Positions 3,930-25,955 of a DNA stretch of 64,000 bases are shown in pieces. The position numbers were made by a program, and so were the translations under genes. Below the pieces are notes generated by a model. The model was not told the origin of the DNA. It saw only the letters and a program-made list of their open reading frames with translations, and made no database searches. Source of the stretch: a virus; IMG/VR virus record IMGVR_UViG_3300042691_008788, positions 64,001 to 128,000 of that record; one strand, 5' to 3'. Each line of letters begins with the position of its first letter. Within the stretch, counting starts at the first letter, position 1.

Positions 3930-4113
3930 ATGTAAATTCCACTCCCTCCACATCTGTGAATGTCTTTGAATAATCAACAGCCCTCTTCCAAAGTTCAGGA
4001 TTCATCTCACGAATATATTCCTGAAAATGATGTGTGAACTGGAGGAATGCCTGAGTTATCTTCTCGGCTTCCTCATGGTCGATGTCATCATCTAGATCGT
4101 CACTTTCTTCCAT
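3886..4113 (-). CDS. small acidic hypothetical protein
   Basis: 75-aa ORF filling the primase-thyX gap with overlaps at both ends. Confidence 0.6.
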   Translation of the reverse strand: MEESDDLDDDIDHEEAEKITQAFLQFTHHFQEYIREMNPELWKRAVDYSKTFTDVEGVEFTYVDNTGCTADGQED

Positions 4114-5150: not shown

Positions 5151-6544
5151 CAGTCGAAGTTCCAATCGTCATATTTATCTGCTGCGGAAGGTACTCCGTT
5201 TCGCTTTCCGCCATTCTTAACATTGTCTTCACTATCGTTGAAACCCCTGTCATCCACGACATCGCTGCCGACATCAATGAGTTTCATCTTTGATCTGTCA
5301 ATGCCAATCACGAACTTCTTGTTCCTTGAGACATCATTGTAGCGATTCTTCAACTGCTTGACCATGACCTGACCCTGTTCCTCAAGTTCCTCTGTGGAGA
5401 TGAGGGCAAACATAAGATCGGCTGTGGCGGGAAGACCGAATGATTCTGATGTATTCTCAAGACCAACATCTGAGTTGTTGAACCCACCGCGATTGACCTG
5501 AGTCGCTGAAAAGATGGGAACCTCAAACTCCTGAGCAAGACTACGAATTTCTTCAGCGATTGCCTTGATGAAAGTATAGGAATTCACACTTGCAGACATC
5601 TTCAATCTTGCGGATGCACAGATGTTCAGATAGTCGATGAAGATGATATCTGGTTCAAAGTTCTTCTTGGTCTTGAGATCATTCAACAATGCTCGGAAAT
5701 GGTTTGCATTTGCCGTTGCCGTTGGATACTCCTTGATGATGAGTCTACCCGTGTACTTCTTACGAATCTGCTGCATCTTCTTGTTGTACAAGTCCGCTGG
5801 CAGTGCCTTGAGATCATCCATGGCTAGATCCATGAGGTTTGCATCGATGCGTTCCGCGATCCTCTCCTCTGCCATCTCACAGGTGATGTAGAGAACATCA
5901 AGATTCTGTGTCAAACAGGCAGATGCATGGTGACACATGAATAGAGACTTGCCGACACCCGTACCCGCCATCACGATATTCAAGGTTTTGCGAGGAACAC
6001 CACCATTGGTGATGGTATTGAACTGCTCAATGTCAAATGGAATCTTGTTTTCAACGCGATGATAGAACTCGTACCGCTTGCCGTAGTCTTCGATGTAATC
6101 GTGACCGATGTTGGTATCGAATGACACCGCAAGGGCATCGGATAGCATCTTTGGTAAAGATCCAACATCCTTGTCCTTCGACTTTCCGTCGATGATATGG
6201 ATTGATTCAAGAATTGCATTGTAGAGTGCCTTGTCCTTGCAGAACTTCTCAGTCTGCTCCACAAGCCATTCAAGATCTGGACTCTTTATGTCTTCGAACA
6301 TCTTGTCTAGATTCACGATGCATTGCTTCATCGTCTCGGGTTCGATGTTCGTCTTGGCATCTAGGAGGATTTCCAAGGCACCGCGAGTCGGCATGGAGTT
6401 GTATCGCTGAATATAGTCAGACACCATTCTGAACAAAATCTTGGTGTCCCTATCAGCGAAATAGTCCTCCTTGAGGAAGGGGAGGACTTTTCGGAAGTAC
6501 TGGTCGTTGCGCGTCAGTTCACGCAGGATGGTCAGTTCGATCAT
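5150..6544 (-). CDS. gp41: replicative DNA helicase (T4 gp41-like)
   Basis: Walker A AGTGVGKS, EMAEERIAERIDAN, IDYLNIC, SESFGLPATAD, QLKNRY. Confidence 0.96.
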   Translation of the reverse strand: MIELTILRELTRNDQYFRKVLPFLKEDYFADRDTKILFRMVSDYIQRYNSMPTRGALEILLDAKTNIEPETMKQCIVNLDKMFEDIKSPDLEWLVEQTEKFCKDKALYNAILESIHIIDGKSKDKDVGSLPKMLSDALAVSFDTNIGHDYIEDYGKRYEFYHRVENKIPFDIEQFNTITNGGVPRKTLNIVMAGTGVGKSLFMCHHASACLTQNLDVLYITCEMAEERIAERIDANLMDLAMDDLKALPADLYNKKMQQIRKKYTGRLIIKEYPTATANANHFRALLNDLKTKKNFEPDIIFIDYLNICASARLKMSASVNSYTFIKAIAEEIRSLAQEFEVPIFSATQVNRGGFNNSDVGLENTSESFGLPATADLMFALISTEELEEQGQVMVKQLKNRYNDVSRNKKFVIGIDRSKMKLIDVGSDVVDDRGFNDSEDNVKNGGKRNGVPSAADKYDDWNFD

Positions 6545-6551
6545 GTAGGTA

Positions 6552-6579
6552 AGTATAGTGTGAGATCAAGTGATGTCAA
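6552..6579 (-). promoter_or_regulatory. sigma70-like promoter for gp41, probably leaderless
   Basis: TTGACA-16 bp-TATACT, 7 nt before the ATG. Confidence 0.75.
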
Positions 6580-7495
6580 GATTCTTTATCCATTCCTCTA
6601 CAGATATTTTTGGTTCCCACTTAAGTTTGGATGTTATTCTTTGAATGTTTGCCTCTGTGATCTTTGCCTCACCCTGTCTTGGCGGTAGGAATACAAATGG
6701 TTCATTGCTATCCCATCGTTCTTGCATGAGTTCCGCAATCTTTCTGATTGTTATGCTCTTTCCCGTACCAACATTATAAACAGTTCCATTTTGTGGTTCA
6801 TTTGATTCAGCACCAGCAATCAATGCCCTACAAACATCCTCAACATGGATGAAGTCCCTGCTTTGGTGTCCATTGCCCGTGATAGTAAGTGGCTTGCCCT
6901 CTTTTAGAAGTCGCTGAAAGATTCCCATCACAAGAGCATACTGACCCTTCTTTGGCATTCGGTTTCCATAGATGTTGAATCCTCGGAAGCACACAGTGTC
7001 AAGTCCATAGTTCGTAGAGTACATCTTGCAAAGTTGTTCACCGAAATACTTGGAATATGAATATGCATTCAGACAATCAGGAACATCCCATTCGAGATTT
7101 GGAGGTTCGCAGAGTCCATAGATCGCAGAGGTACTCATGAACACCATGCGAGAAGCACACCCATTATCATGTTTTCTACACAAAGAAAGCATTGTTTGTG
7201 TACCCATGACATTTGTTTCCATGCAGCGACTAGGGTCATTCATGCAGTTCTGTATACGAGCCTCTGCTGCAAGATGAAAGACCACATCGGGTCTGTGTCT
7301 TTCAAATACCTCGCTGCACATAACATAATCAGTTATGTCATAGTGGTAGTACATTACATTGGGATTGAAGTAGAACTCATCGTGAGCATCGGATGAAAGA
7401 TTATCGATGCCTACGACTTCATGTCCCTGCTCGACAAGCATATCGACAAGATTGGAGCCGATGAATCCGCAGGAGCCTGTTACTAGGTATTTCAT
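6566..7495 (-). CDS. NAD-dependent nucleotide-sugar epimerase/dehydratase (extended SDR)
   Basis: VTGSCGFIGS, VFHLAA, YSYSK (YxxxK), GHQSRDFIHVEDV. Confidence 0.92.
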   Translation of the reverse strand: MKYLVTGSCGFIGSNLVDMLVEQGHEVVGIDNLSSDAHDEFYFNPNVMYYHYDITDYVMCSEVFERHRPDVVFHLAAEARIQNCMNDPSRCMETNVMGTQTMLSLCRKHDNGCASRMVFMSTSAIYGLCEPPNLEWDVPDCLNAYSYSKYFGEQLCKMYSTNYGLDTVCFRGFNIYGNRMPKKGQYALVMGIFQRLLKEGKPLTITGNGHQSRDFIHVEDVCRALIAGAESNEPQNGTVYNVGTGKSITIRKIAELMQERWDSNEPFVFLPPRQGEAKITEANIQRITSKLKWEPKISVEEWIKNLDIT

Positions 7496-7501
7496 AAAGC
7501 A

Positions 7502-7529
7502 AGTATAGCGCGGGATCAGCGAGAGTCAA
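7502..7529 (-). promoter_or_regulatory. sigma70-like promoter, probably leaderless
   Basis: TTGACT-16 bp-TATACT, 6 nt before the epimerase ATG. Confidence 0.7.
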
Positions 7530-8146
7530 GACTTCCTTACAAGAACAATATTTTCAGCGTTCAGAGCGGCAGCATCATACTTGTCTTTAAATTTATCGTA
7601 GATAGCCTGATACTTTCCATCATGTTCTATAACGATTGCATCAACATCAAATCGTTCAAAATCAAACTTCATGGAAAGATCAAAACTGGTTCCTTCAACA
7701 TCAATGGACACCAAATGCAACTTTTGTGGTAGGAAAGTATATAATTCTTCCAATGATATTGTTGATGCCACATAAGGAACATGCTTTCTTCCAAGATGGT
7801 TCAGGTAGCCAGCCCACTTATCCTTATGCCATCCCTCAGTAGTAGTTAGCGCACCATCAGTTCTATCATCCTTCGGTACCAACCAAGACTTGATGGGCGG
7901 TGTCTTTTCAAGCGTGACTGCTGCACCAACTATCAGAATCTTGTCGTTGGTCTTGTATTCATTCACAAGATCAACAAGACTATAGGGAGACATGTCCACC
8001 ATGACTCCACCCCAACCCTTCTCGACCAATGCACGGGTGTTGGATAGATTCTTTGGGTGAAATGCTCCGATTTCAAGGAAAGAGCCATTTGGAATATTTG
8101 AGAAAAATGTTGCAAGAATATCATCTTCATTATTTTGAGCGTACAT
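7526..8146 (-). CDS. FkbM-family SAM methyltransferase
   Basis: MYAQNNED, FLEIGAFHPKNLSNT, GWGGVMVD, VSIDVEG; probable start 8146. Confidence 0.85.
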   Translation of the reverse strand: MYAQNNEDDILATFFSNIPNGSFLEIGAFHPKNLSNTRALVEKGWGGVMVDMSPYSLVDLVNEYKTNDKILIVGAAVTLEKTPPIKSWLVPKDDRTDGALTTTEGWHKDKWAGYLNHLGRKHVPYVASTISLEELYTFLPQKLHLVSIDVEGTSFDLSMKFDFERFDVDAIVIEHDGKYQAIYDKFKDKYDAAALNAENIVLVRKS

Positions 8147-8576
8147 GCGTTCTCCATTCTTTTGCGTAATCAGTGCATACTCCCCACATTTGAGGAATGT
8201 CACCTTCGGGCTTTCCCAACCACACCGTGACACCAAGACGAGAGTGGTTGTCAGGATACATCCACAACAATCCATCACTCGTCAGGGTCATCTTGTCCGT
8301 TTCATGCCAGAAACAAGTTATGCCATATGACGAAACGATCATTTCCTCAAAGGCTTCCTTGTTCTTTGCATGACACCACAAAGACTTTCCACGAAACCAC
8401 CAAGGATCAACAAAGTATGTCGGAGCATCATGCCCAAGAAAGAACTGACCATCGACATACCAAACATCCACTTCTACATCGAACCCAAGATCCAAAGCCT
8501 GTTGGATATAGGTTGGATTGTTCTCACACTCAGGTTTCCTACCATCTAGATTGCCACGATGAGATATAATTTTCAT
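8130..8576 (-). CDS. short glycerophosphodiester phosphodiesterase-like protein
   Basis: IISHRGN, EN, GFDVEVDVW, LGHD, WCHAKN, GVCTDY. Confidence 0.8.
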   Translation of the reverse strand: MKIISHRGNLDGRKPECENNPTYIQQALDLGFDVEVDVWYVDGQFFLGHDAPTYFVDPWWFRGKSLWCHAKNKEAFEEMIVSSYGITCFWHETDKMTLTSDGLLWMYPDNHSRLGVTVWLGKPEGDIPQMWGVCTDYAKEWRTHVRSK

Positions 8577-9289
8577 TACTTTCTACCGAGGAAAGAATTC
8601 AAATCTTCGGGGGTTCCTATTCCATGCATCCTGTGTACAAAGAAAGGAATCAGTGTCTTTCCAGACTGAATCAGTTCATTGTAGACAGGGGCGATATAGA
8701 ACTCGTTGTTCACCCGTATGTTCTTCTGAATCATTGTCTCAGCACAAGAAACAAACTCAGAACCCCTGCGATACCAGTAGATGCCACAGGTTGCAATGTC
8801 TGATATCGGATTCTTTTCGGCAACCTCAGTGACAACTCCCCGTGAATTTGTCTTCACGAAAGACCACTTGGGATGTACGGCATGAAAGGTGAATACTATC
8901 GCATCGGCGGCAGTAAAGTTCTTGAGATAGTTGAAGTTCTCAGGACTATATTCGATTATCTGATCCGAATTTGCTATTAACAGATCCTCGTCGTTGTTGA
9001 TGTATTCCTTGGCGAGCAATGCCGTACATGCCGCACCTTCAGTTAAACCATCCACCTCGACAACCTTGTATCTCCCATTAGTAATCCTCGCAAGGGTTGT
9101 CTCCAACCCAGCGTACTTATCAAGATGCTCCTTGCGAACAAGGAAGATATACTCTGCATCGAAGTCGAGATTCTCGACAACGCGCTGAATCATCGGTTTG
9201 CCTTCCACATCAATGAGAGGTTTTGGGAAGGTATATCCTTCCTTTGCGAACCTACTACCTTCCCCAGCCATTGGTATTAAAATCTGCAT
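8576..9289 (-). CDS. sugar/polyol-phosphate nucleotidyltransferase
   Basis: IPMAGEGSRF..PKPLI, TEGAACT, IANSDQ, EVAEKNPIS, GTPEDL. Confidence 0.88.
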   Translation of the reverse strand: MQILIPMAGEGSRFAKEGYTFPKPLIDVEGKPMIQRVVENLDFDAEYIFLVRKEHLDKYAGLETTLARITNGRYKVVEVDGLTEGAACTALLAKEYINNDEDLLIANSDQIIEYSPENFNYLKNFTAADAIVFTFHAVHPKWSFVKTNSRGVVTEVAEKNPISDIATCGIYWYRRGSEFVSCAETMIQKNIRVNNEFYIAPVYNELIQSGKTLIPFFVHRMHGIGTPEDLNSFLGRK

Positions 9290-9918
9290 AGTTCTTTGTA
9301 ATAATAAAGCCCATCAACAAAATTTGTGTAACTCTCTCTAGTCACTTTTGTTGAGTTATCAACTTTCCAAATATATTCTGCTAGGCTGCTCTTTGCAGAT
9401 TGCAAACCAAACATAGAGTCCTCAACACAAATGCACTTTTTAGGATTTGCGTTCATCTTTCCGATTGCCAAATTATAACAGTCTGGATGAGGCTTGTTTC
9501 TATTCACCATTTCGTTACTAACGATAAGATCAATAAATGGAATTTGTCCAGTGGCAGTAAGCATCTCTATTGCGGTGTCTCGTATTGAGTTTGTGACACA
9601 TGCTATTTTGATATCCAAAGACTTCAAATGCTGATGTAGTTCGATCTTCTCTGGCATAAGAGTAGCATTTTTCCTGATGACATCAATAGTGTGTCTTTGC
9701 TTTTCCTCATTAATCTTTTCAGCGATTTCTTTTGGCACATTCATCATTTGTAACTTTATCCGCGTTGGTAATCCATTATATGTCGATTCATGAGCATTCC
9801 TGCTGATTTCAGGATAGCCATGTTCTTTTAGGGCCATATTCAACGCCTCGTAGTGCCATTCGCAGGCGTCCACAAGAACTCCATCCAAATCAAAAAGAAC
9901 AAAATCAATATCTACCAT
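9277..9918 (-). CDS. HAD-superfamily phosphatase
   Basis: FDLDGVLVD, VTNS, KPHP, VEDS. Confidence 0.9.
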   Translation of the reverse strand: MVDIDFVLFDLDGVLVDACEWHYEALNMALKEHGYPEISRNAHESTYNGLPTRIKLQMMNVPKEIAEKINEEKQRHTIDVIRKNATLMPEKIELHQHLKSLDIKIACVTNSIRDTAIEMLTATGQIPFIDLIVSNEMVNRNKPHPDCYNLAIGKMNANPKKCICVEDSMFGLQSAKSSLAEYIWKVDNSTKVTRESYTNFVDGLYYYKELCRF

Positions 9919-9919
9919 T

Positions 9920-10630
9920 TCAGTATTGCCTCATGTTTGGACTATTAGCATAATAAAAAGACTCATCTAGTCTAACTATCTCAGAATCGAATAGCGTCTG
10001 ACATATGTCAAATAGATTTTTGTGTGTGTCTACGAAAGAGCGGGTGTTATACACTTCATGTGAAAAGAGACGAAGTAGATGAGAAGATTTCCCAATCATG
10101 ACTCCATCATGAAGATGATCCTTCATCTGAGAAAAAACTAGCAGATCTTTGTCTGTTTTGCTGAATCTACTAATTGAGTCATTTATGTAATCTATCGAAG
10201 AGGGCTTGTGCGGAAATATATCTGGTCTTGTGAGTATCACTATATCATCCGACAAAGATGGTTGTGTTGACAAGAACTGATTCAATGCCATGTAACGATG
10301 CAAAATTTGCATCTTGTAACTAGACTCTCTGTAATATGGTCTTTCTTTACAAACGGGCAGGGTCTTATATTGAGATAACAGAAGATCTCGCGTCGATAGA
10401 TCTATAAAATCTACGGCATCAAAAAACTCAAGATCCATCAGTTTTTGTAGATTTACCTTAGAAGTGTCCGCAGACATAGTTTTATCCATGTCTCCTGTCC
10501 ACCATCCGAGTTCTTCGTGCGTAAAAATAACTCTTTTTTGACAAAGAAACCTTGATAGATGTCTCTCTATGAATGGTGTGGGGTTGGAATAAAAGTTTCT
10601 CAGATGTCCAGTGACGAAAAGAGTAGGCAT
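9920..10630 (-). CDS. hypothetical protein, possible glycosyltransferase
   Basis: LFVTGHLRNF, IFTHE, ILTRPDI pattern and island context. Confidence 0.5.
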   Translation of the reverse strand: MPTLFVTGHLRNFYSNPTPFIERHLSRFLCQKRVIFTHEELGWWTGDMDKTMSADTSKVNLQKLMDLEFFDAVDFIDLSTRDLLLSQYKTLPVCKERPYYRESSYKMQILHRYMALNQFLSTQPSLSDDIVILTRPDIFPHKPSSIDYINDSISRFSKTDKDLLVFSQMKDHLHDGVMIGKSSHLLRLFSHEVYNTRSFVDTHKNLFDICQTLFDSEIVRLDESFYYANSPNMRQY

Positions 10631-10631
10631 G

Positions 10632-11210
10632 TCATTTTCTCCGCACTATGAACATCAAGTCATCGTAACGACCCTTTGTTGCTCGCAGATCAACTATATC
10701 GAACTCATCTGTCTCTTGTTTTACTTTCTCAAATGCATTACAAAGAACTGGCATCCAATCGATTGACTGTACATCTTCTATTGCAAGAACTCCACCACTG
10801 TTAAGTTTACGAAGATAGATGTTAATACAAGATACCATAGAGTCTAGGGTGTGTGGTCCATCATCTATAATGATGTCGAAATTTGGCAATCCATCTGAAA
10901 CTCTAGAGTTGTATGCGTCATCTATTGTGATAACTATGTTATCGTTTTGCAATGCTTCTTGGACAATCTTCCCACCATAATTGTCAAGTCCATAAACCCC
11001 AGTGTGATTAGAAAAATACTTGTCCCACAAGAGCAGCGAATGACCAGAAGCGATTCCAATCTCAAGGATTTTTACTGCCTTGTCCCTATATTTGGAAAAC
11101 TCCTGCTCATAAAAGCCGTCAATGTAGTTGTGTGTGGTATTTTTGTCGGTGGCAACTCCACATTCCCCCGACCACTTGCTTTCATTCAATATTTCGTTCA
11201 AAGTTTTCAT
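10632..11210 (-). CDS. class I SAM-dependent (sugar O-)methyltransferase, MycE-like
   Basis: TDK..HNY..Y, ILEIGIASGHSL..W, FDIIIDDGPH, GGVLAIEDV. Confidence 0.85.
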   Translation of the reverse strand: MKTLNEILNESKWSGECGVATDKNTTHNYIDGFYEQEFSKYRDKAVKILEIGIASGHSLLLWDKYFSNHTGVYGLDNYGGKIVQEALQNDNIVITIDDAYNSRVSDGLPNFDIIIDDGPHTLDSMVSCINIYLRKLNSGGVLAIEDVQSIDWMPVLCNAFEKVKQETDEFDIVDLRATKGRYDDLMFIVRRK

Positions 11211-11233
11211 AGTTATTTTCTCAATCAAAATTT

Positions 11234-12397
11234 TTAAGAGTAAATCTGTATCTCAGGGAGCAGAACCACTATCTTTCCTCCAAATGATTGCCTGAGAGAG
11301 TGTATTATGTGATCTTTGAAGTTGTGTATCAGCACTATGATGTAGTCTGGTTTGTCTGTATTTATACGAGTTCTATCAACAACTTCTAACTTTGTTCCTG
11401 GAATAAACTTTCCTTGCTTACCTGGAGTGTCATCAACAACATAGAGAAATTGATCAACAAGAGATTTATCTATGCAATTTAAATAGACACAACTCTTAGC
11501 CCCAGCACCGAAACAGGCAACCCTGCCACCATTCAATAGACTTTGGATGAATATCTCATCGGATTCTATTTTATTCCTAACAGACTTTCCCCACGAAGCA
11601 AAATCAAAATCTTTCTCTATTTGAATATAGTTTTGAACTTCGTCAATATGACCTCTACCTCTGTTTGTAGACACCACTCGGATAGTTCCTCCGTGGATAG
11701 GATGTTCTGTTATAGAAACTATACTCAACCCATATTCAGAAAACAACTTGGCTAAAGGGGTTATTAGCCAGTAAAAGTAATGCTCATGATATATCTGATC
11801 AAATTGATTCGTCTGTGCGGTTCTTAAAAAATACGGAAATTCTAAAACCCAAACCCCATCTAAGTTTGATTTTATAGACCTCAAAAACCCATGGACATCC
11901 GAGTTGTGTTGAAACACATTAGTAGACACAATGAGATTTGCTTTTCCATCAATTTTGCAATCTGCCCAGAACTTTCTCTCATAGATGATGCCCGATGCTA
12001 TGTTTTCTTCCACAAAAGAAACGCTTGGATCAACATTGATAAGTCTTGTCTCAACTCCATCTGGCATCCTCTCCTTAAACACCTTAAGAAGAGTTCCATC
12101 ATTTCCTCCTATATCTACAATCGTAGAAATCTCTTTAGCATACATCGAAAGATGCTTTTTAATGTCGTTCCACATTGCTCGGCAATGTTGCTTATACGGC
12201 TCGTTCACAGAAGACCTATAGAGATATTCGTGAAACATCTCTGTTGGGTCAACCTGTGTGTCCAAGCGAAATATCATGTCTTCCTCAACCATTTTCAATG
12301 AATATCTTTTGGCAGAAATGGAAGATTCAGCAGTTGTTTTCAGGTTATTTGCCAAAGGTATTGTGTTCAGATCAAGTATAGTTCGTTCGTTGCTCAT
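11234..12397 (-). CDS. NDP-sugar C-methyltransferase-like protein
   Basis: YLYRSS, VDIGGNDGTLL, NVFQH, FDQIYHEH, IHGGTIR, FGAGAK, VDDTPGKQGKFIPGT. Confidence 0.9.
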   Translation of the reverse strand: MSNERTILDLNTIPLANNLKTTAESSISAKRYSLKMVEEDMIFRLDTQVDPTEMFHEYLYRSSVNEPYKQHCRAMWNDIKKHLSMYAKEISTIVDIGGNDGTLLKVFKERMPDGVETRLINVDPSVSFVEENIASGIIYERKFWADCKIDGKANLIVSTNVFQHNSDVHGFLRSIKSNLDGVWVLEFPYFLRTAQTNQFDQIYHEHYFYWLITPLAKLFSEYGLSIVSITEHPIHGGTIRVVSTNRGRGHIDEVQNYIQIEKDFDFASWGKSVRNKIESDEIFIQSLLNGGRVACFGAGAKSCVYLNCIDKSLVDQFLYVVDDTPGKQGKFIPGTKLEVVDRTRINTDKPDYIIVLIHNFKDHIIHSLRQSFGGKIVVLLPEIQIYS

Positions 12398-12415
12398 TTC
12401 TGTTCTCCTCGAAAA

Positions 12416-13099
12416 TTAATGAATCTCTTCATTTCCATGTACTGCTATCTTTCCCTTTATTCCAATTGGAGAATCAAAGAACTGATAGCGAGAAGGGTTC
12501 AATGTAGTCACATAGTTGTATACCATTTTTTCCATCGAAGTCTGATCACCAGAAGCGTATCTGTTCGTGGCATAGTTCAAAAAATCCATGTATTTCTCTC
12601 TGCATGATACCCGATAAAGTGATGGAATCGATGTAGAACCCTCCCAAGGAGTATTGTACATCACACGGACATTGAAGTCTTTATTCATGTCAAATCTTTC
12701 TAGTTTAAAACTAGAATCAATGATATATCTTCCACTGATCTTATAGATGTCGTTGGAAAAATCAATCTTTGATACTACTTCACGCAGGATAAAAGCCTCC
12801 CCAGCACTCTTATTTGGAGAGTGTACCCACTTAGCCACCTCTTGAGTTGAAGACAAATCTACAAACTTGTCTTCATAACCAAGAACTTTTCTTATTTTAA
12901 AACTATTAGCCGAACTCCAATCAAATGCACTACAGTCTGCAAGGATAATCTTAAATTGAGGTAACATATTCTTGATCGACAGAATAGTTTCGATAGTCTG
13001 CTTTAGTCTAGAATCAACATCAAAAACACTTCGTGTAGCAGTGTAATTCAAAGGACTATTAGTCGGGTGTATAACTGATGTTATTATGATGGTACTCAA
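12416..13099 (-). CDS. hypothetical protein, putative glycosyltransferase
   Basis: IITSVI..RSVF..RLKQTIETI..ILADCS..NKSAGE..YKISGRY; island context. Confidence 0.55.
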   Translation of the reverse strand: MSTIIITSVIHPTNSPLNYTATRSVFDVDSRLKQTIETILSIKNMLPQFKIILADCSAFDWSSANSFKIRKVLGYEDKFVDLSSTQEVAKWVHSPNKSAGEAFILREVVSKIDFSNDIYKISGRYIIDSSFKLERFDMNKDFNVRVMYNTPWEGSTSIPSLYRVSCREKYMDFLNYATNRYASGDQTSMEKMVYNYVTTLNPSRYQFFDSPIGIKGKIAVHGNEEIH

Positions 13100-13111
13100 A
13101 ATTTAGAACTC

Positions 13112-13861
13112 CTAAAATGAATAGTGCTTCTTGTAGTGATGTAGAATTGAATACTTTTCTCTTAATGTATCTTCTACCCCATCGTAGTTTTTTTTGCTAT
13201 GATCTTCTCCCCATCTACCAAGTTCATAAACTTCTGCATTAAACTGATGTTTCTTTCCTGCTAGCATGAAGGCAATTGAATTCATACAGTCAGTCCATCC
13301 TATTGTTGGATAAATCTTCTGTATAGCATCAAAGTTCTTGTCAACAAATGATATCAGATATGGATATATCATCTGAAATGTTTCTCGCTTAAATATCCCC
13401 CCACCACCAAGACCATAGTGATTGTCTGAATTTTCTCCACTAACATTTCTTATAAACTCTAGTAACGACGGGTGAATGTAGTTCTGTTTGCAGTTTTCTG
13501 TTACATACATCTCAACATCTATCGGAACATTGATAGAGTTTATTACACACACATCATCTTCCATTATCAGAATATGAGATGATTTGCACAAAGAAACAGC
13601 CGCAGAAAATCTCCTCAGATATTCCATCATCTGTGATTTCTTGTAACCAAATACTTTTTCGGGATATCCGATGTTCTCTTGGGCGTGAATATAAATGCAA
13701 TTGTGGTTACGACAAATATCGGAAAAATCATCACCGCCATCACATACAACCACATAGGTAGAATCTGGATTATACTTACGAAAACTTGATATCGCAGCAT
13801 CACTGGCTACTTTGTTTTTATAAACTAAGTGAAGTGCATCGATACTCAAAACACACCCCAC
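13112..13861 (-). CDS. GT-A fold glycosyltransferase
   Basis: VVVCDGG, ENIGY, ILIMEDDV (DxD-like), GGGGIF. Confidence 0.7.
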   Translation of the reverse strand: MGCVLSIDALHLVYKNKVASDAAISSFRKYNPDSTYVVVCDGGDDFSDICRNHNCIYIHAQENIGYPEKVFGYKKSQMMEYLRRFSAAVSLCKSSHILIMEDDVCVINSINVPIDVEMYVTENCKQNYIHPSLLEFIRNVSGENSDNHYGLGGGGIFKRETFQMIYPYLISFVDKNFDAIQKIYPTIGWTDCMNSIAFMLAGKKHQFNAEVYELGRWGEDHSKKNYDGVEDTLREKYSILHHYKKHYSF

Positions 13862-14628
13862 TTGCTAGTATCTACTCTATCATACTGATGTATAATTGGT
13901 ATTACACTTCCACCGACAGATGGGAGTTTGCTTTCATCCCATGTAGGCTTCTCAATCAACTTGTCACGGAACTTCTGAACTCCAACTGTCCCAAGGTGAA
14001 CCATAAGTCCATCGGATGGCCGAACCATTCGTATTGACCTTCTTCCAAACTCAGTACCCATGAGGATGTTGAAAGACGATTGATCTGAAACGCTTGCAGG
14101 ATTGTGGTAGCACATGGTGAAGATCATCAGACACAATTCAGCAACTGCTTCTACAGTTCCACAGAGAACGCCGACATTGCATATCTCCTGTTCCTTGTAC
14201 TCGTCATAGACATAGCCAAATCCCTCACGAAGATTTCCGTTCCCCCAATGCTCATCTTGATAAGCAATACATTCGCTGCCACAGACTATATTTCTACTAC
14301 CTAGAAGTTGAATCAAGCGGGGAAATGGATCTCCATGAAAATAGACATCCCTGCTATCTGTTAGAACAACATATGAGTATATGTGCTTCACAGACATCAG
14401 GTACTTGTATTGAAGTAAAAAGCGTAGGTTGTGTGGAGGCTTGTTCATCGGTGGAAGATGATATGGAACAACCATAACTCTGTTATCTGTACAATCCTTT
14501 ACAAGTTGATCATTTGAATTAATAAGGATATTACAAACATCATGCCCCGTCTTTTTTGCAGACAAGTTCCAAGTCTTTATTTGATCCCAACCATAACCTG
14601 AAGATGATGATAGAAATAAATTTTTCAC
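13846..14628 (-). CDS. GT-A glycosyltransferase resembling the PLOD/LH3 GT domain
   Basis: VVLTDSRDVYF, IVCGSE, CNVGVLCG, SDQ, IIHQYDR. Confidence 0.7.
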   Translation of the reverse strand: MKNLFLSSSSGYGWDQIKTWNLSAKKTGHDVCNILINSNDQLVKDCTDNRVMVVPYHLPPMNKPPHNLRFLLQYKYLMSVKHIYSYVVLTDSRDVYFHGDPFPRLIQLLGSRNIVCGSECIAYQDEHWGNGNLREGFGYVYDEYKEQEICNVGVLCGTVEAVAELCLMIFTMCYHNPASVSDQSSFNILMGTEFGRRSIRMVRPSDGLMVHLGTVGVQKFRDKLIEKPTWDESKLPSVGGSVIPIIHQYDRVDTSKWGVF

Positions 14629-15527
14629 TTGGTATCCATTACCTTCATAATAAAGTTCTTGAATATCTGTCGCCCATTGCGAATGTACTCATCTGCACGA
14701 TATCCTGTGATTGGATCAACAAAGGACATCGTCTGTAGTCTGTCTTGATCGGATAGCAAAGAGAATATATCTTGTACAGATCTAGTTACAGACTCTTGGT
14801 TGGTAGAATCAAATCTGATATACGATTTAGGATTAAACTCAAGCGCAATATCTTCGGCTCCCCAATAAATCGGAACTGAGTTGACAATAAATGCCTCATA
14901 GATCTTTTCTGTAATATATGACTTTTTTGCAAGATTTTCAAATGCAATAGCAGCCGAATACTTTGAAGTGAACTCCAACTTGTCAGAAACTTCACCAACA
15001 TTATTGCATACCCTTCCACCAGAGTCACATACACCACTCTGAACAAGATACTGAATCAATGTTGTTCTCAAGCCATTGCTTGGATTAGAAACAACTGCTG
15101 ATATCTTTCGCGTCTTATCCTTACGAAACTTTTCTCGCAGTTCTTCAAATGAATCACAGCCGTGCTTGTCAAGATAGTCCTGATGGTAGATCGCATATAG
15201 AGGAAACCTAAGTGCCATCATACCATTCGGCATATCCTCTTCAAGATCAAATCCAATGTATGCATCACATCCTGGTGTCGTGGAGACGATATCATAACTT
15301 TCTCCAGTAAAAGCAATTTTTTTACAGTTAATCTTGTTCATATCTGCATATGACGGAGAACCAACCATCGGTCGATATATTGAAATGACCAAATCAACAT
15401 TAGTATTCACTCCAAGTTGTATTTCACATTTTGGAAATATCTCCTTAAGCAATCTACTGATAATAAAACTATCTGTCGTACAATTATTGTCAAATCCACC
15501 CCAAGTATTGACATAAGCAATCTTCAT
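14625..15527 (-). CDS. GT10 alpha-1,3/4-fucosyltransferase-like protein
   Basis: FTGE, AVVSN, K..F...Y..AIAFEN....YITEKI..AF....VPIYWG. Confidence 0.9.
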   Translation of the reverse strand: MKIAYVNTWGGFDNNCTTDSFIISRLLKEIFPKCEIQLGVNTNVDLVISIYRPMVGSPSYADMNKINCKKIAFTGESYDIVSTTPGCDAYIGFDLEEDMPNGMMALRFPLYAIYHQDYLDKHGCDSFEELREKFRKDKTRKISAVVSNPSNGLRTTLIQYLVQSGVCDSGGRVCNNVGEVSDKLEFTSKYSAAIAFENLAKKSYITEKIYEAFIVNSVPIYWGAEDIALEFNPKSYIRFDSTNQESVTRSVQDIFSLLSDQDRLQTMSFVDPITGYRADEYIRNGRQIFKNFIMKVMDTK

Positions 15528-16183
15528 ATACTCACCTTTATCAATATTCTTTCTGGTGTTTCGTTGCGATCAAGAACAGAATACTTGCAGGAATTGATTC
15601 CTTCATTCTCCCAATCCAACTTCTTCAACCACATCTCTCTAATACGCTCTATGTTCTTCTTGTAATCTTGCTCATCAATCTTCCTGTCATGGTTCAATGA
15701 CTTCAGGATACCAGGCGACTGCCTTTGAACCTTCAACCCTGCGAGGTGGCAACGATAGAGGATGTCATCATCTTCTGCTCCCCAACCCCAATACTCGTTG
15801 CTGTATCCATTCACCTTGTTGAATGAGTTCCTACTGAACATAGTGACTCCACCAAAGTATCCTTCGTATGGAAGCCCATAGTTGAACTGACTTGCGGATG
15901 CAGCAAGGTGTGTTGGTAGTTCCTCATAGTTGTAACTTACATTCTGAGGAAGCATGTCAACATCATGAAACACAAAGTAATCGCAGTCCGTGTCTGCCTC
16001 AAGAAAACCAATATTCAACAACTTGGCTCTATTGAATGGCTTTCCAACTTCCTGCTCTATGATATAGATGTTGTGCAGTACATTCTGCTTGTCCAAGTAA
16101 CTCTTCATGTGAGGAAGGAACACCCGAAGGTGTTCCTCACGATCACGATATGGAACTACTATAGCAAGTTTATGTGTGGTCAA
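15524..16183 (-). CDS. GT7 beta-1,4-galactosyltransferase-like protein
   Basis: AIVVPYRDREEHL, FNRAKLLNIGF, FHDVDMLP, YFGGV, NGYSNEYWGWGAEDDD. Confidence 0.92.
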   Translation of the reverse strand: MTTHKLAIVVPYRDREEHLRVFLPHMKSYLDKQNVLHNIYIIEQEVGKPFNRAKLLNIGFLEADTDCDYFVFHDVDMLPQNVSYNYEELPTHLAASASQFNYGLPYEGYFGGVTMFSRNSFNKVNGYSNEYWGWGAEDDDILYRCHLAGLKVQRQSPGILKSLNHDRKIDEQDYKKNIERIREMWLKKLDWENEGINSCKYSVLDRNETPERILIKVSI

Positions 16184-17034
16184 AAAGCACCACCAGACAT
16201 TTTTTTCAAAGAATATCTCAAAGCATCCAACTCAGTTCTACAATGCATCATCGGATTTTCTTTTTGTATTGTTTCTAGACAGATATTTGCTCTTGGAGCA
16301 GAAAGAGAAAGTTGTTCTAAAGTCTTCAACTTCCAATTTGGATTCCCAAATCCAAATTTTTGCATTTCCGTAATGAACTCCTCGGTGTTAAGTGGATTTG
16401 GATTTATCATGTGATAAACCCCACATGCATCTACGAGAATACCACTTACAAGCATTTGCTCTATCGCAGAACACAAATCATCCATACAAGTTTTTGAATT
16501 TCTATAATTAAGAATATTGTCATAATTAACCAACTTACAAATCAAATTTCTTTGAGTAGTTTCTGAGTTAAAAGGAAGTCTGATCCTTAAATTTGAGTTC
16601 GGGAGATGTTTAGATGACAACTCATAAGCATGTTTAGTTTTTGTATAAAATGATGGTTCATTGAACATTCCAAAATTTGGAGTGTCTGATTCATTCCAAA
16701 CTTTATTATAACCATCGAACAAACAACCAGTGGAGATATGAACATAAGAAATGTTCCTATTAGCACACAAAGTATTGACCATAAGAGGAACACTGACATT
16801 CAAATTCCAACATTCTTCTTTTTTTGACTCGGCTTCGTCTATGTTTGGTCTGCCTGTGAATCCAAAGCACCCAAAGACAATATCTGGTCTAAACGACTGC
16901 AAATGACTATCCAAAATAGATTTGTTATGATAATCAAGAATATTTCTAGGAAAAACCAAGGTTTCGTGGGTTTTCACCAATTGCTTGTATAAGTTGCCAC
17001 CAACATATCCATTTCCCAGTATAGTTATTTTCAT
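16180..17034 (-). CDS. NDP-4-keto-6-deoxyhexose 3,5-epimerase/4-reductase (RmlD/NRS-ER-like)
   Basis: ILGNGYVG, GFTGRPNIDEAE, HISTGCLF, ESDTPNF, SFYTKTK, LRIRLP. Confidence 0.85.
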   Translation of the reverse strand: MKITILGNGYVGGNLYKQLVKTHETLVFPRNILDYHNKSILDSHLQSFRPDIVFGCFGFTGRPNIDEAESKKEECWNLNVSVPLMVNTLCANRNISYVHISTGCLFDGYNKVWNESDTPNFGMFNEPSFYTKTKHAYELSSKHLPNSNLRIRLPFNSETTQRNLICKLVNYDNILNYRNSKTCMDDLCSAIEQMLVSGILVDACGVYHMINPNPLNTEEFITEMQKFGFGNPNWKLKTLEQLSLSAPRANICLETIQKENPMMHCRTELDALRYSLKKMSGGAF

Positions 17035-17070
17035 AGTGATTAACATCCCCTACTGATTTTATTATCCAAT

Positions 17071-18090
17071 TCAAGCACTTCCATACTTAAACTCCTTTGC
17101 CACAGCATCCTCAAGCCGCTTCATCACATCATCGGTGAAGTACTTCTGTGGATTCTCATTGATGTTCTTCTCAAATGCCGTGGTGCCATCGGGAAGTTCG
17201 ATGCGAGTCGATACCTTCTTGAAGATTCCATGGTTGAGAGCGATCTCGGTAAGACCATAGTAGCGGTTCAGACCAGTATCATAGTTCAACTGAACATCGA
17301 CCTGTTGATTCTCTTTGGTCAAACGAGATTTGTACAACTTGCAATGAATGATGTTTCCCACCACATCCCCATCTGCATTCTTTTCCTTCTTCTTTGAGAG
17401 ATAGACGATGGTGGATGCGGCGTACTTCAAACCGCTGCCACCACCCATCTCCTTCGTCGGAACATACGCGCCAATGACATCGTATGTGTGATTGGTCATC
17501 ACAAGAGGAATCCTTGCCTTACCCAACTTCATGGTAAGGACACGGAATGTTGCCTTGACTCCCTGCGAACGAGTCATGTCGCGGACATTCTTACCCTCTG
17601 CTGAATCGTTGACTTCCTTCTCGGTTGACAACATTCCAAGTGAGTCAAGGACGATCATCATCGGCTTGCGATCTGATTCATCCATCTCAAGAACCTTGTC
17701 AACGATTGTCACACATTGAGTCTTGAACTCCTCAATCGTGGCAACGGGAAACACAGCGACTCGCTTGGCATCAACACCACGACCTTCGAACATGTCGGAT
17801 GTCACCGCTTGCTCTGAGTCAAAGTAGAGAACCATGCCCTCGGGATTGTTCTTGAGGAACTGCGCGACAATCCCAAGGGTAAAGTAGGTCTTTCCCGTGG
17901 CAGACTCACCCGCAAGGGCGATGATCTTGTTGTCGGCAACTCCACCATACAACGATCCTGAAAGGAGCGCATTGAAAGCATAGGAGCCTGTGTCAACGAA
18001 TCCCGCGACATCGGCACCTTCGATTCCATCCTCAACGATACTGGCAAACTTGTTGCCAGATTCCTTCACAATCTGCTTTAGAAAATTCAA
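17071..18090 (-). CDS. uvsX: RecA-like recombinase
   Basis: DTGSYAFNALLSG, AGESATGKT, LDSLGML, VTNHTY-like, MGGGSGLKYAAS; TTG start. Confidence 0.95.
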   Translation of the reverse strand: MNFLKQIVKESGNKFASIVEDGIEGADVAGFVDTGSYAFNALLSGSLYGGVADNKIIALAGESATGKTYFTLGIVAQFLKNNPEGMVLYFDSEQAVTSDMFEGRGVDAKRVAVFPVATIEEFKTQCVTIVDKVLEMDESDRKPMMIVLDSLGMLSTEKEVNDSAEGKNVRDMTRSQGVKATFRVLTMKLGKARIPLVMTNHTYDVIGAYVPTKEMGGGSGLKYAASTIVYLSKKKEKNADGDVVGNIIHCKLYKSRLTKENQQVDVQLNYDTGLNRYYGLTEIALNHGIFKKVSTRIELPDGTTAFEKNINENPQKYFTDDVMKRLEDAVAKEFKYGSA

Positions 18091-18094
18091 TGTA

Positions 18095-18400
18095 TTACTC
18101 TCCTGACAACTTGAGGCTTACTGGCTTGACTCCACCCGTTGGCATCACAAGACCCGAACCGAATCCCGTGCTGTACTCGTTTGCCGTATTGTCCTCTGCA
18201 TCGACGCAGTACAGAACCTTATCTGCTGCAATCGTGACCGACTCTTCCTTCGCAAATGGAATCCAAGGAACAAGACCAACCTCGCCCTTGTTGATCATCA
18301 CGATCATTGCTGGCTTCTTGAGAGTATAAGAAGTGCCATTGTCCGTCGTGTTTGCGAGAAGATTCTCACCCGTAACCAATCTAATCAACTTTGTAGCCAT
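18095..18400 (-). CDS. conserved T4-like-phage small protein (Sm-like fold suspected)
   Basis: KLIRLVTGENLLA..LKKPA..LVPWIPF..Y...FGSGL; AGGAG RBS. Confidence 0.7.
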   Translation of the reverse strand: MATKLIRLVTGENLLANTTDNGTSYTLKKPAMIVMINKGEVGLVPWIPFAKEESVTIAADKVLYCVDAEDNTANEYSTGFGSGLVMPTGGVKPVSLKLSGE

Positions 18401-18432
18401 GATATATCTCCTTTTGTTAGGCTTTCACTTCA

Positions 18433-18460
18433 AGTGTACTGTATTTATGACCATTGTCAA
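18433..18460 (-). promoter_or_regulatory. composite sigma70-like promoter with an embedded late promoter
   Basis: TTGACA-16 bp-TACACT; spacer contains CATAAATA (18442-18449). Confidence 0.65.
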
Positions 18461-18469
18461 TGACTTCAA

Positions 18470-19135: not shown

Positions 19136-19136
19136 A

Positions 19137-21677: not shown

Positions 21678-21683
21678 GTTGTA

Positions 21684-21711
21684 AGTATACCTCAATGCAT
21701 CAGAGATGCAA
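21684..21711 (-). promoter_or_regulatory. sigma70-like promoter for gp43, probably leaderless
   Basis: TTGCAT-16 bp-TATACT, 6 nt before the ATG at 21677. Confidence 0.65.
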
Positions 21712-22633: not shown

Positions 22634-22634
22634 T

Positions 22635-25479: not shown

Positions 25480-25487
25480 TATGTATT
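25480..25487 (-). promoter_or_regulatory. late-type promoter variant (AATACATA)
   Basis: TACATA variant also found before gp3, gp22 and gp18; lies upstream of the GT2-TPR RBS. Confidence 0.5.
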
Positions 25488-25902: not shown

Positions 25903-25955
25903 ATCGACCTCGCCAATCAATCAAGCATGTGTGAATAACTGAAATATTTAGCATT

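Follow-up and report, generated by a model that had tools for sequence, protein, structure and literature searches.

A hypervariable glycan-biosynthesis island at the uvsX-gp41 junction of an uncultured aquatic T4-like myovirus, and its candidate acceptors

What do the sugar-gene clusters of marine and freshwater T4-like phages modify? These clusters are widely annotated as lipopolysaccharide ('LPS') genes, and we know of nobody who has shown their targets. We considered this question for one such locus, a 14-gene island of ~10.5 kb that lies between uvsX and gp41 of an uncultured aquatic T4-like myovirus. The DNA analysed here, referred to as the window, is a stretch of 64,000 nucleotides (nt) that corresponds to bases 64001-128000 of IMG/VR virus record IMGVR_UViG_3300042691_008788, a linear, metagenome-assembled sequence of 156.6 kb that is 86% complete. 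Glycan clusters in the hyperplastic regions of aquatic T4-like phages are already known. What is new in this locus and its relatives is a fixed uvsX-gp41 site with break points defined at the nucleotide level, a complementary second site beside a glycosyltransferase (GT) that resembles GmaR and SunS, the lack of membrane components across ~72 islands, and a number of unusual parts: a soluble GT7, a zinc-less sugar C-methyltransferase, an NRS/ER-type reductase, a mini-GDPD (glycerophosphodiester phosphodiesterase-like protein), and two or three transferase-like domains without a family. As the acceptor of the glycan we tentatively favour phage proteins.

A fixed site with exchangeable content

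The island and its relatives were compared in two samples. The first consisted of 80 uvsX-bearing IMG/VR loci, onto which all window proteins were mapped and which gave 67 informative rows (66 of these loci plus the window); the second consisted of 80 loci obtained from a scan for the GT2-TPR gene described in the following section. The site itself is defined by three features of the window:

17071-18090, minus strand: uvsX (RecA-like recombinase), conserved left flank (Pfam RecA, 1.1e-17)
6552-6590, minus strand: right border of the island, with homology resuming at 6580-6590 at a sigma-70-like site before gp41 (blastn against L024, L021, and L026)
5150-6544, minus strand: gp41 replicative helicase, conserved right flank (Pfam DnaB_C, 2.5e-19)

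Between these flanks, 14 co-directional minus-strand open reading frames (ORFs; 6566-17046) fill the junction. An earlier sequence-only reading of this DNA had described 14 tightly coupled genes at this place, which was borne out by the ORF layout and by the Pfam matches of both flanks; the spacing of neighbouring genes ranged from a 17-nt overlap, a figure that assumes the internal Met at 8146 as the start of the FkbM gene, to a 30-nt gap. Contigs L006 and L009 carried uvsX at 94-99% identity, the gp41 DNA matched annotated gp41 genes of Synechococcus phages, and annotated orthologues of both flanking genes are present in S-H35 and S-WAM1. The island was AT-richer than its flanks, as had also been noticed before. 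Its GC content of 0.392, compared with 0.475 and 0.454 in the flanks, was the minimum among all sliding 10.5-kb stretches of the window, and GC at third codon positions (GC3) was 0.30-0.50 in island genes versus 0.57-0.60 in uvsX, gp41, and gp43. Island GC was below that of the flanks in L024, L021, L026, and L094 as well.

The blastn comparison with seven relatives placed the left break point at 17077-17081, immediately after the stop codon of uvsX (17071), and in seven relatives the borders were fixed to within ~10 nt. The junction running from uvsX through the GT7, GT10, and GT-A genes was reproduced in the independent metagenome contigs L006, L009, L014, L019, L023, L024, and L026, and the junction into the gp41 promoter region was reproduced in L021, L024, and L026. 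Because independent metagenomes reproduce both junctions, an assembly chimera at the island borders, which the sequence-only reading had named as a finding that would overturn it, is excluded. A search of the site for signatures of mobile elements found neither a tRNA nor a member of any Rfam family, direct and inverted repeats in the flanks did not exceed chance, and att-like repeats and an integrase were likewise absent from the island. Exchange presumably occurs by homologous recombination within the conserved flanks, which is the simplest mechanism.

A large and mostly different island was present at uvsX-gp41 in 26 of the 67 informative rows, and the remaining 41 had 15-1264 nt at this place. 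In the window's own clade (uvsX identity of 85% or more), a large co-directional island followed uvsX in every locus whose downstream sequence reached 3 kb; the distance from uvsX to gp41 was 6.2, 7.1, and 9.1 kb in L026, L021, and L024, respectively, and >10 kb in the other loci of the clade. The 25 islands of relatives at this site contained 255 ORFs, which together with the window's 14 proteins formed 98 clusters. The Pfam matches of the cluster representatives (the island censuses of relatives, here and below, show the 25 commonest families each) were dominated by glycan families, namely FkbM, epimerases, GDP-mannose dehydratase (GMD), GT47, GT10, GT15, RXYLT1, UDP-galactopyranose mutase (GLF), DegT aminotransferase, and thiamine pyrophosphate (TPP)/transketolase enzymes. 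Among close relatives, core genes were 84-99% identical, whereas island genes were 33-94% identical or absent. Two parts of the window's island nevertheless recurred: the GT7, GT10, and GT-A genes stood directly after uvsX in seven relatives (49-94% identity), and the HAD/nucleotidyltransferase/GDPD-like module was found again at 36-87% identity. As these comparisons show, the relatives have replaced the island gene by gene or module by module, and the stretch from about 6590 to 17076 is a hypervariable (hyperplastic) island of T4-like genomes. The island had earlier been proposed to be a swappable cassette, a proposal that is strongly supported by the fixed borders, the mosaic content, and the 41 near-empty junctions of the uvsX-gp41 interval in relatives.

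On a quick uvsX tree the island state fell into four separately supported clades and required at least three changes; the deep nodes of this tree were unresolved, and a single island origin followed by losses may apply. In S-H35 (L003 8253-8822) and S-WAM1 (L004 7714-8277) a single conserved gene for a 2-oxoglutarate (2OG)-Fe(II) oxygenase occupies the junction; no homologue of this cyanomyophage gene lies there in the window's group.

With respect to transcription, the total counts of sigma-70-like and terminator-like sites were at chance level. The three best sigma-70-like sites sat in the rare intergenic gaps: one at 18433-18460 before a small gene upstream of uvsX, one at 7502-7529 before the terminal gene for a short-chain dehydrogenase/reductase (SDR) epimerase, which therefore has a promoter-like site of its own, and one at 6552-6579 before gp41. 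The last, TTGACA-16-TATACT, was the best of the region in the promoter scan (11/12). This placement suggests that transcription reads through from uvsX into 13 island genes. The T4 late promoter TATAAATA had one match in the 64 kb, which equals the chance expectation.

A second island site beside GT2-TPR

Outside the island, two adjacent genes of the window proved relevant to its distribution:

24175-25452, minus strand: conserved GT2-TPR glycosyltransferase, outside the island, between regA and a dUTPase-like gene (Pfam Glycos_transf_2, 1.4e-14, 54.8 bits)
25486-25920, minus strand: regA

The closest solved relatives of GT2-TPR in PDB were GmaR (1.9e-14) and, at ~2e-5, SunS and a SunS-like enzyme, which we take to be protein or peptide glycosyltransferases (acting on flagellin and peptides); its TPR_19 match was weak, with 17.1 bits, and under the cut-off. 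From its sequence, GT2-TPR is a candidate initiating protein glycosyltransferase.

Orthologues 56% identical to GT2-TPR were present in genomes G006 and G007, whose uvsX-gp41 junction is empty. In these two genomes and in the L036/L150 contig the gap between uvsX and gp41 measured 15-277 nt, and a glycan island of 7 to >10 kb lay between regA and GT2-TPR instead. The islands of G006 and G007 spanned ~12 kb with 15-16 co-directional genes, had Pfam matches to GT47, GT10, GT11, GT25, GT92, RXYLT1, FkbM, Methyltransf_24, GLF, and epimerases, and placed SDR epimerase and FkbM genes beside GT2-TPR. The GT2-TPR-based sample gave the same picture. Where GT2-TPR was at least 72% identical to that of the window, the distance to regA was 22-61 nt in 25 loci and 654-656 nt in two; where it was 49-60% identical, 47 of the 47 loci with at least 3.5 kb upstream had 7 to >10 kb of co-directional genes up to regA. 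In the window's clade, as well as in a second lineage (G002; uvsX 72% and GT2-TPR 51% identical), regA and GT2-TPR were adjacent (15-61 nt apart) and the island was at uvsX-gp41.

The islands at the two sites drew on related genes. Upstream of the sister-lineage GT2-TPR genes we counted 490 ORFs (94% coding on one strand; 172 clusters), and 292 of them had homologues in uvsX-gp41 islands. The Pfam census of these sister islands listed GT2, GT25, GT11, FkbM, Methyltransf_24, TylF, a C-methyltransferase, DegT, GLF, and TPP enzymes. The gene directly upstream of GT2-TPR was an SDR epimerase in 25 of the 47 loci, and the window's terminal SDR (6566-7495) had homologues in 43 of the 47 sister islands (up to 55% identical), so that islands at either site typically end with an SDR epimerase gene. 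When 788 pooled island and flank ORFs of relatives were compared with the 156.6-kb genome, their homologues lay at 6569-16180 only, besides the conserved flank genes included in the query. So far, there is one island per genome examined, at one of the two sites, and all GT2-TPR-positive contigs that cover both sites have an island.

A first test for co-occurrence of GT2-TPR with the uvsX-gp41 island was confounded by a single clade and was replaced by this two-site analysis. A GT2-TPR homologue of Tunturiibacter phage Tunturi_5, located beside a nucleotidyltransferase and near tail-fibre genes, was too distant to be used. Locus L089 of the L081 clade (G001:C1:29244-32666) carried a further small glycan cluster elsewhere, which consisted of two GT2 genes and a DegT aminotransferase.

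Enzymes encoded by the island

The 14 island genes, in the order in which they follow uvsX (NDP, nucleoside diphosphate; SAM, S-adenosylmethionine; aa, amino acids), are:

16180-17046, minus strand: NRS/ER-type NDP-4-keto-6-deoxyhexose 3,5-epimerase/4-reductase-like protein, rhamnose-synthase type (Pfam RmlD_sub_bind, 7e-17)
15524-16183, minus strand: GT7 (beta-1,4-galactosyltransferase family) catalytic domain, soluble (Pfam Glyco_transf_7N and 7C)
14625-15527, minus strand: GT10 (alpha-1,3-fucosyltransferase family)-like glycosyltransferase (Pfam Glyco_transf_10, 45.2 bits against a cut-off of 23.9)
13846-14628, minus strand: GT-A-fold glycosyltransferase-like protein, no Pfam family (AlphaFold2 and Foldseek)
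13112-13861, minus strand: uncharacterised domain with an invariant E-D-D motif (profile-defined family)
12416-13099, minus strand: orphan protein of a virus-restricted family (no Pfam, NCBIfam, or PHROG match)
11234-12397, minus strand: NDP-hexose C-methyltransferase of the TylC3/TcaB9/MtmC type (Pfam Methyltransf_14, 76.6 bits; Methyltransf_23, 48.1 bits)
10632-11228, minus strand: class I SAM methyltransferase, presumed sugar O-methyltransferase (Pfam Methyltransf_24, 1.2e-6)
9920-10630, minus strand: GT-A-like protein of a viral family near DUF7796 (Atlas structure match; Pfam-negative)
9277-9918, minus strand: HAD-IA hydrolase of the beta-phosphoglucomutase family, sugar-phosphate phosphatase or mutase (Pfam HAD_2, 3e-31)
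8576-9289, minus strand: sugar-1-phosphate (or phospho-alcohol) nucleotidyltransferase-like protein (Pfam NTP_transferase, 4.5e-9)
8130-8576, minus strand: 148-aa GDPD-like protein (N-terminal GDPD motif set; PHROG 34507, 1.6e-28)
7526-8146, minus strand: FkbM-family methyltransferase (Pfam Methyltransf_21, 25.1 bits against a cut-off of 22.7)
6566-7495, minus strand: GalE-like NDP-sugar 4-epimerase (extended SDR), last island gene (Pfam Epimerase, 6e-58)

Most functions that the sequence-only reading had assigned by eye were recovered by Pfam, namely the GT7 (both halves above cut-off) and the GT10, a C-methyltransferase with two further methyltransferases (Methyltransf_24 and FkbM), the HAD protein, the nucleotidyltransferase, and the SDR epimerase; its 'epimerase/reductase' is the RmlD_sub_bind protein at 16180-17046.

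The latter matched a 3,5-epimerase/4-reductase (4qqr, 1.2e-27) and UDP-L-rhamnose synthase (7jid, 1.2e-17) in PDB and bacterial RmlD at 3e-5, and it contains the GxGxxG (GNGYVG) and YxxxK (YTKTK) motifs. This gene was present in the window only and in no relative; compared with L009, the closest relative (uvsX 99% identical), which runs directly from uvsX to GT7, it is a precise single-gene insertion or deletion, and its GC3 of 0.298 was the lowest of the island. A partner 4,6-dehydratase was not found in the island, where the other SDR has S-T-S-A in place of the expected T-D-E triad. That second SDR had UDP-glucose 4-epimerase (4zrm, 4.3e-55) as its best PDB match and carries the motifs GxxGxxG (GSCGFIG), STSAIYG, and YSYSK without the Asp-Glu pair of 4,6-dehydratases; its NCBIfam scores were below the equivalog cut-offs for dTDP-glucose 4,6-dehydratase (161.8 versus 365.1) as well as GalE (151.4 versus 262.3). 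The only paralogy found within the island was that of the two SDRs, at E about 0.01.

The GT7 protein scored 94.6 bits with Glyco_transf_7N (cut-off 27) and 89.5 bits with 7C (cut-off 23). Signature motifs of this family are FNRA-x-LLN, a DVD metal site, and WGWG-x-EDDD, and the translation contains FNRAKLLN, FHDVDM, and YWGWGAEDDD. With 219 aa and a maximum hydropathy of 0.51, the protein is the catalytic domain alone, without the type II membrane anchor and stem of the eukaryotic enzymes. By its sequence it is a soluble prokaryote- or virus-type member, with a sugar specificity predicted by family only. It was 52-94% identical in islands of relatives, and 1914 metagenomic homologues were found versus 0 in 50,697 cultured phage records. 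For the GT10 protein, the additional FucT_N match of 24.4 bits was under the cut-off of 27.2, and the motif FEN...Y(V/I)TEK was seen as FEN...YITEK: AFENLAKKSYITEK.

Besides these two, the sequence-only reading had counted about four further GT-like proteins. This stood for 13846-14628, which has a GT-A fold, and for 9920-10630, which is GT-A-like; for 13112-13861 it rested on fusions only, and 12416-13099 stayed an orphan. The AlphaFold2 model of 13846-14628 had a pLDDT of 64 with the N-terminal two thirds confident, its top Foldseek matches were GT6 alpha-3-GalT, blood-group GTA/GTB, BoGT6a, and UGGT (E about 1e-8, TM about 0.5), and D91-S-R-D94 was invariant in 7 homologues. The model of 13112-13861 (pLDDT 45.7) was too poor to search, and this protein had no Pfam or PDB match. 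Its profile comprised 434 cluster representatives, and long homologues of the domain were fused to GT4/GT1, Wzy_C, Methyltransf_24, or GT17+DUF6492; it is probably a glycan-pathway enzyme. Profile searches of PDB with 13846-14628 and 13112-13861 gave nothing, and hhalign found no relation between their families. The nearest Atlas clusters of 12416-13099 were unnamed and viral, the nearest named ones being WavE (18% of members) and DUF7796 (17%) with weak scores, and the Atlas structure search with 9920-10630 returned clusters carrying GT92, GT2, GT8, or WavE at TM 0.58-0.73. This leaves three orphan island proteins, two of them with glycosyltransferase-like leads.

The closest PDB matches of the C-methyltransferase were D-mycarose 3-C-methyltransferase (4rv9, 2.4e-31), TcaB9, and a further sugar 3-C-methyltransferase, and it aligned over its full length to 4rv9 and 3ndi. 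Its first Cys is residue 72 and the Pfam N-terminal domain was unmatched; the protein is without the N-terminal four-cysteine zinc domain and, as read from its sequence, represents a variant lacking the zinc site. The closest homologue in a public phage, 39% identical, was found in LR756501/LR756503 (735-kb uncultured phages), which also encode a GT2-TPR homologue (31% identical) ~157 kb from the C-methyltransferase. The Methyltransf_24 gene had a 68% identical homologue at another position of the L024 island. As for the FkbM gene, the reading frame stays open as far as 8278, but translation probably begins at the Met at 8146, and the only full homologue (L019, 86% identical) aligned from residue 45.

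The HAD protein contains the DxDGxL motif and matched the NCBIfam PGMB-YQAB subfamily at 5e-27, under the cut-off. The nucleotidyltransferase matched PHROG 3980 (4.9e-65) and PDB 4evw (2.6e-22) and was 72-87% identical in relatives, 80% in a sister-lineage island, and 55% in cultured Synechococcus phages. The sister-lineage copy (L148:3702-4415) was 80% identical although GT2-TPR is only 57% identical there, which points either to lateral transfer of island modules among lineages or to an unusually strong constraint. In the third protein of the module, which had been called 'GDPD-like', H6-R7, E18-N19, E35-x-D37, and H49-D50 (motifs HRG, EN, ExD, and HD) were invariant in 7 homologues, and the best PDB profile match was a GDPD, 7e2a, although a weak one (E=0.033). 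The N-terminal motifs and this match speak for the name; the Pfam search (no match even at E<=10) and the length (148 aa versus ~240 aa for a full TIM barrel) do not. The protein may work like, or derive from, the N-terminal half of a GDPD, and membership of this family is not established. Its gene accompanies the HAD/nucleotidyltransferase pair, as in S-CAM9. In S-CAM9 (L001 8341-11501) and S-PRM1 (L002 8341-11501) HAD and nucleotidyltransferase are fused in a 461-aa ORF. There, the fusion and a homologue of the 148-aa protein belong to a cluster of glycosyltransferase and epimerase genes that is located between talC and the hli/psbA region. Public annotation of the fusion is inconsistent ('HAD hydrolase', 'pyrophosphorylase', or 'hypothetical').

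Acceptor of the glycan, known systems, and flanking genes

We then considered where the product of these enzymes might be attached. None of the 14 island proteins of the window has a membrane segment, and proteins with at least two hydrophobic segments numbered 0 of 14 in the window and 0 of 745 in the islands of relatives (the Wzy_C control had 12). With no polytopic protein, the islands lack a flippase, polymerase, ligase, initiating phosphoglycosyltransferase, or exporter, which points either to a cytosolic acceptor or to dependence on membrane steps of the host. This all-soluble gene set, the type of GT2-TPR, and its physical and distributional linkage to the islands form the basis of the reading that we favour, at somewhat less than even confidence: the acceptor would be cytosolic and would most probably consist of proteins of the phage, likely of the virion, to which the GmaR/SunS-like GT2-TPR would first transfer a sugar. 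The virion, one of the targets listed in the sequence-only reading, is supported by the same linkage and by the absence of membrane components.

Under this reading, the HAD/nucleotidyltransferase/mini-GDPD module and the GalE-like epimerase would supply activated sugars. The C-methyltransferase and the NRS/ER-like reductase would convert an NDP-4-keto-6-deoxyhexose into a 3-C-methyl and/or L-rhamnose-type 6-deoxyhexose; because the island encodes no 4,6-dehydratase, the substrate of this route would have to come from the host, presumably through an RmlB-type enzyme. GT7, GT10, the GT-A protein, and up to three orphan transferase-like proteins would assemble the oligosaccharide, which the FkbM and Methyltransf_24 enzymes would cap by O-methylation. 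A complex methylated oligosaccharide had been proposed before; the enzyme set fits it, and its synthesis is still predicted from genes. In this way the cassette would give each phage strain its own surface glycan. As a possible extension, to which we give less credence, GT2-TPR (usually with the GalE-like epimerase) and the cassette may form a two-part 'virion serotype' system, in which the former primes particle proteins and the single exchangeable cassette elaborates a strain-specific methylated oligosaccharide.

Which proteins could be primed was considered in the second lineage. G002 (L192, G002:C1:56500-76436) has three collagen-like proteins around GT2-TPR and regA (4084-5991, 6382-9063, and 15898-18471, all minus strand), two of which are almost pure Gly-Pro/x-Thr repeats with 58 and 104 Gly-x-Thr versus 17 and 32 expected. 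By analogy with glycoprotein substrates of the BclA type, which these GPT-type proteins resemble, they are possible substrates. An RCC1-repeat protein (9175-10938) lies between the collagen-like proteins of L192. Two large proteins of the window had a Gly-x-Thr excess as well (p = 9e-6 and 6e-4). The window further encodes the following protein, which is probably a fibre:

1619-3214, minus strand: 531-aa collagen-like protein with a C-terminal globular domain (54-triplet collagen-like region)

It was rejected as a BclA-type Gly-x-Thr substrate, since its triplets mostly end in Gln, Lys, or Arg.

Several observations weigh against virion proteins as acceptor. The island sits in the replication module and not among late structural genes, and without the host its deoxysugar route is incomplete, as no 4,6-dehydratase is encoded. 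The L081-L087 clade has a uvsX-gp41 island and no GT2-TPR orthologue on a 119-kb contig. The association with GT2-TPR rests on about three lineages, and adjacency to this gene could merely mark a second recombination hot spot. The Gly-x-Thr excess was as strong in G008/G010 (observed/expected 1.76-1.78, compared with 1.47 in the window's genome); examples from these contigs (L205-L212) are 78 Gly-x-Thr versus 28.8 and, with collagen-like runs, 60 versus 18.3. We dropped this excess as a marker of the system because it was equally strong where neither GT2-TPR nor an island was found, namely on the partial contigs G008 and G010; G009 likewise showed neither, and these three are 33-43% complete. 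Finally, soluble glycosyltransferases are also active on the inner side of the membrane, where they use undecaprenyl-linked intermediates, and for this reason remodelling of host O-antigen or capsule through the host's own flippase and ligase is fully compatible with an all-soluble set.

This host-envelope alternative, in which the soluble enzymes extend lipid-linked O-antigen, capsule, or S-layer intermediates of the host during infection and thereby block superinfection or stop progeny from re-adsorbing to dying cells, is the main rival, and we consider it only somewhat less probable. It is the standard interpretation for the glycan genes of marine T4-like phages, and in pelagimyophages and large cyanomyophages the same repertoire has been assigned to O-chain or cell-wall modification (PMC7029224, PMC12801897). 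The island is co-directional with early/middle replication genes, its intergenic promoter-like sites are sigma-70-like only, the diversity of its content is like that of bacterial O-antigen loci, and the clade without GT2-TPR fits here as well. It is countered by the ~72 islands (759 proteins) without a flippase, polymerase, ligase, initiating phosphoglycosyltransferase, ABC exporter, or Gtr-type membrane protein, and by the tie, physical and in distribution, to a gene whose nearest solved relatives glycosylate proteins or peptides. Moreover, the search for a bacterial donor or host gave no close homologues, GT7 being at most 55% identical.

A glycosylated small molecule or another soluble cytosolic acceptor, such as a secondary-metabolite-like glycoside or a host protein, seems very unlikely to us. 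The enzymes are all soluble, and among solved structures the C-methyltransferase is closest to enzymes of antibiotic deoxysugar synthesis (MtmC, TcaB9, and the further sugar 3-C-methyltransferase), but no genes for polyketide synthases, nonribosomal peptide synthetases, or terpenes were seen among the Pfam matches of the window island or the 25 commonest families of the relatives' censuses, and GT7 and GT10 chemistry is typical of glycoconjugates.

We also consider it very unlikely that the glycosyltransferases decorate modified bases of the phage DNA and so evade restriction, as the T4 alpha- and beta-glucosyltransferases do. In T4 the gene for DNA beta-glucosyltransferase neighbours uvsX, and the window's island is placed among genes of replication and nucleotide metabolism, with a dUTPase/dCTP-deaminase-like gene and a DNA N6/N4 methylase nearby. 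However, a ThyA-family dCMP/dUMP hydroxymethylase (PF00303) was not found in the 86%-complete 156.6-kb record, in a search whose controls worked, and this agrees with the sequence-only reading, which had ranked DNA as the less likely target. A search of the record for TET/JBP (PF12851) gave no match and was uninformative, as its control matched nowhere either. In addition, at least six transferase-like proteins, C- and O-methyltransferases, and deoxysugar enzymes far exceed the known needs of DNA glycosylation, and the island transferases are of GT-A types (GT7, GT10) whereas the T4 enzymes are GT-B.

That the island is a chimera or non-functional, decaying cargo, as a metagenome-assembled, linear, and incomplete contig and the deviating GC might suggest, has practically no probability given junctions that recur in independent contigs with break points within ~10 nt and 14/14 intact ORFs with conserved catalytic motifs.

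The locus can be placed beside several known systems. It shares glycosyltransferases, NDP-sugar epimerases, and nucleotidyltransferases in hyperplastic regions of phages of aquatic hosts with the glycan or 'LPS' clusters of marine T4-like phages, for which we compared the pelagimyophage host-recognition cluster, S-SCSM2R, S-SCSM1, and P-SSM2, and S-CAM9 and S-PRM1 (PMC7029224, PMC12801897). The HAD/nucleotidyltransferase/mini-GDPD module is homologous (55% identity) to that of S-CAM9, S-PRM1, and 17 other Synechococcus phage records. The locations differ, the window island being in the uvsX-gp41 replication module, the pelagimyophage cluster in a hyperplastic zone of the structural region, and that of S-CAM9 between talC and hli/psbA. 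Unlike these clusters, the window island alternates with a second site by GT2-TPR and has a sugar C-methyltransferase, an NRS/ER-type reductase, and a GT7 absent from the cultured phage records. Bacterial O-antigen and capsule loci (e.g. galF-gnd of Enterobacteriaceae) resemble it in their fixed site, conserved flanks, low GC, extreme allelic diversity, and exchange by recombination in the flanks, but the ~72 phage islands are viral, occupy one of two sites, and are without Wzx/Wzy, Wzm/Wzt, WaaL, or an initiating phosphoglycosyltransferase. With the T4 alpha- and beta-glucosyltransferases, which make glucosyl-hydroxymethylcytosine, the locus has in common phage glycosyltransferase genes near uvsX in the replication module; no ThyA-type hydroxymethylase was found in the record, the folds are different, and the gene set is more complex by an order of magnitude.

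For glycosylation of virus particles, PBCV-1 is a precedent, in which virus-encoded capsid glycosylation is independent of the membrane machinery of the host and involves methylated deoxyhexoses. As in these chlorovirus capsid glycans and in the virion glycosylation of mycobacteriophages (Freeman et al. 2023, as cited in PMC12801897), soluble virus-encoded enzymes would act on virion proteins in the cytoplasm. The window system differs in being known from genes alone, in not lying beside capsid or tail genes, and in its presumed initiator of the GmaR/SunS type. GT2-TPR has the GT2 domain and the GT2-plus-repeat architecture in common with GmaR (the Listeria flagellin O-GlcNAc transferase), the S-glycosyltransferases SunS/ThuS, and SgtA-BclA3 of C. 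difficile, and the GPT-type collagen-like proteins beside GT2-TPR in G002 recall BclA-type substrates. This likeness concerns the neighbouring GT2-TPR and not the island, and the window's collagen-like protein has Gly-x-Gln/Lys/Arg instead.

The locus and its relatives thus make up a sharply defined system, with fixed borders, one island per genome, two sites, and a link to an enzyme of protein-glycosylating type, and the cassette is a source of unusual enzymes. If the virion is the target, phage particles of lakes and oceans would carry strain-specific glycan coats, with a bearing on adsorption, grazing, aggregation, evasion of defence, and the interpretation of 'auxiliary metabolic genes'. 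If the two-part serotype system holds, it would be a viral counterpart of O-antigen diversity, the first in T4-like aquatic phages, built with enzymes of eukaryote or giant-virus type (GT7, GT10, NRS/ER).

All genes of the region are on the minus strand. Read 5' to 3' on that strand they follow the order gp46, gp45, gp44, regA, GT2-TPR, the dUTPase-like gene, DNA N6/N4 methylase, gp43, two small genes, uvsX, the 14 island genes (17046 down to 6566), and gp41, beyond which lie a gene for a 357-aa protein, thyX, and the collagen-like gene. Since psbA was not found in the record and uvsX was about equally close to myophages of Pelagibacter (63% identity), Methylophilales (62.6%), and Synechococcus (61%), the phage is not demonstrably a cyanophage, and we rejected this assignment as unproven. 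A search for the host or bacterial donor through GT7 was uninformative, as its genome matches, 32-55% identical, were scattered over Chlamydiota, Acidobacteriota, Bacteroidota, Desulfobacterota, Spirochaetota, and Proteobacteria. The remaining genes between GT2-TPR and uvsX are:

23659-24156, minus strand: dUTPase/dCTP-deaminase-like gene, between gp43 and GT2-TPR
21692-22801, minus strand: N6/N4 DNA methylase (PF01555, 4.6e-54), between gp43 and GT2-TPR
19137-21695, minus strand: gp43
18470-19309, minus strand: 279-aa ORF, Pfam-negative

The DNA methylase was present in some relatives only (70-95% identical) and was placed elsewhere in others. The 279-aa ORF overlaps the annotated TTG start of gp43 by ~170 nt, and because its L006 homologue matches 218 residues only (86% identity), the start codon of either this ORF or gp43 is probably miscalled.

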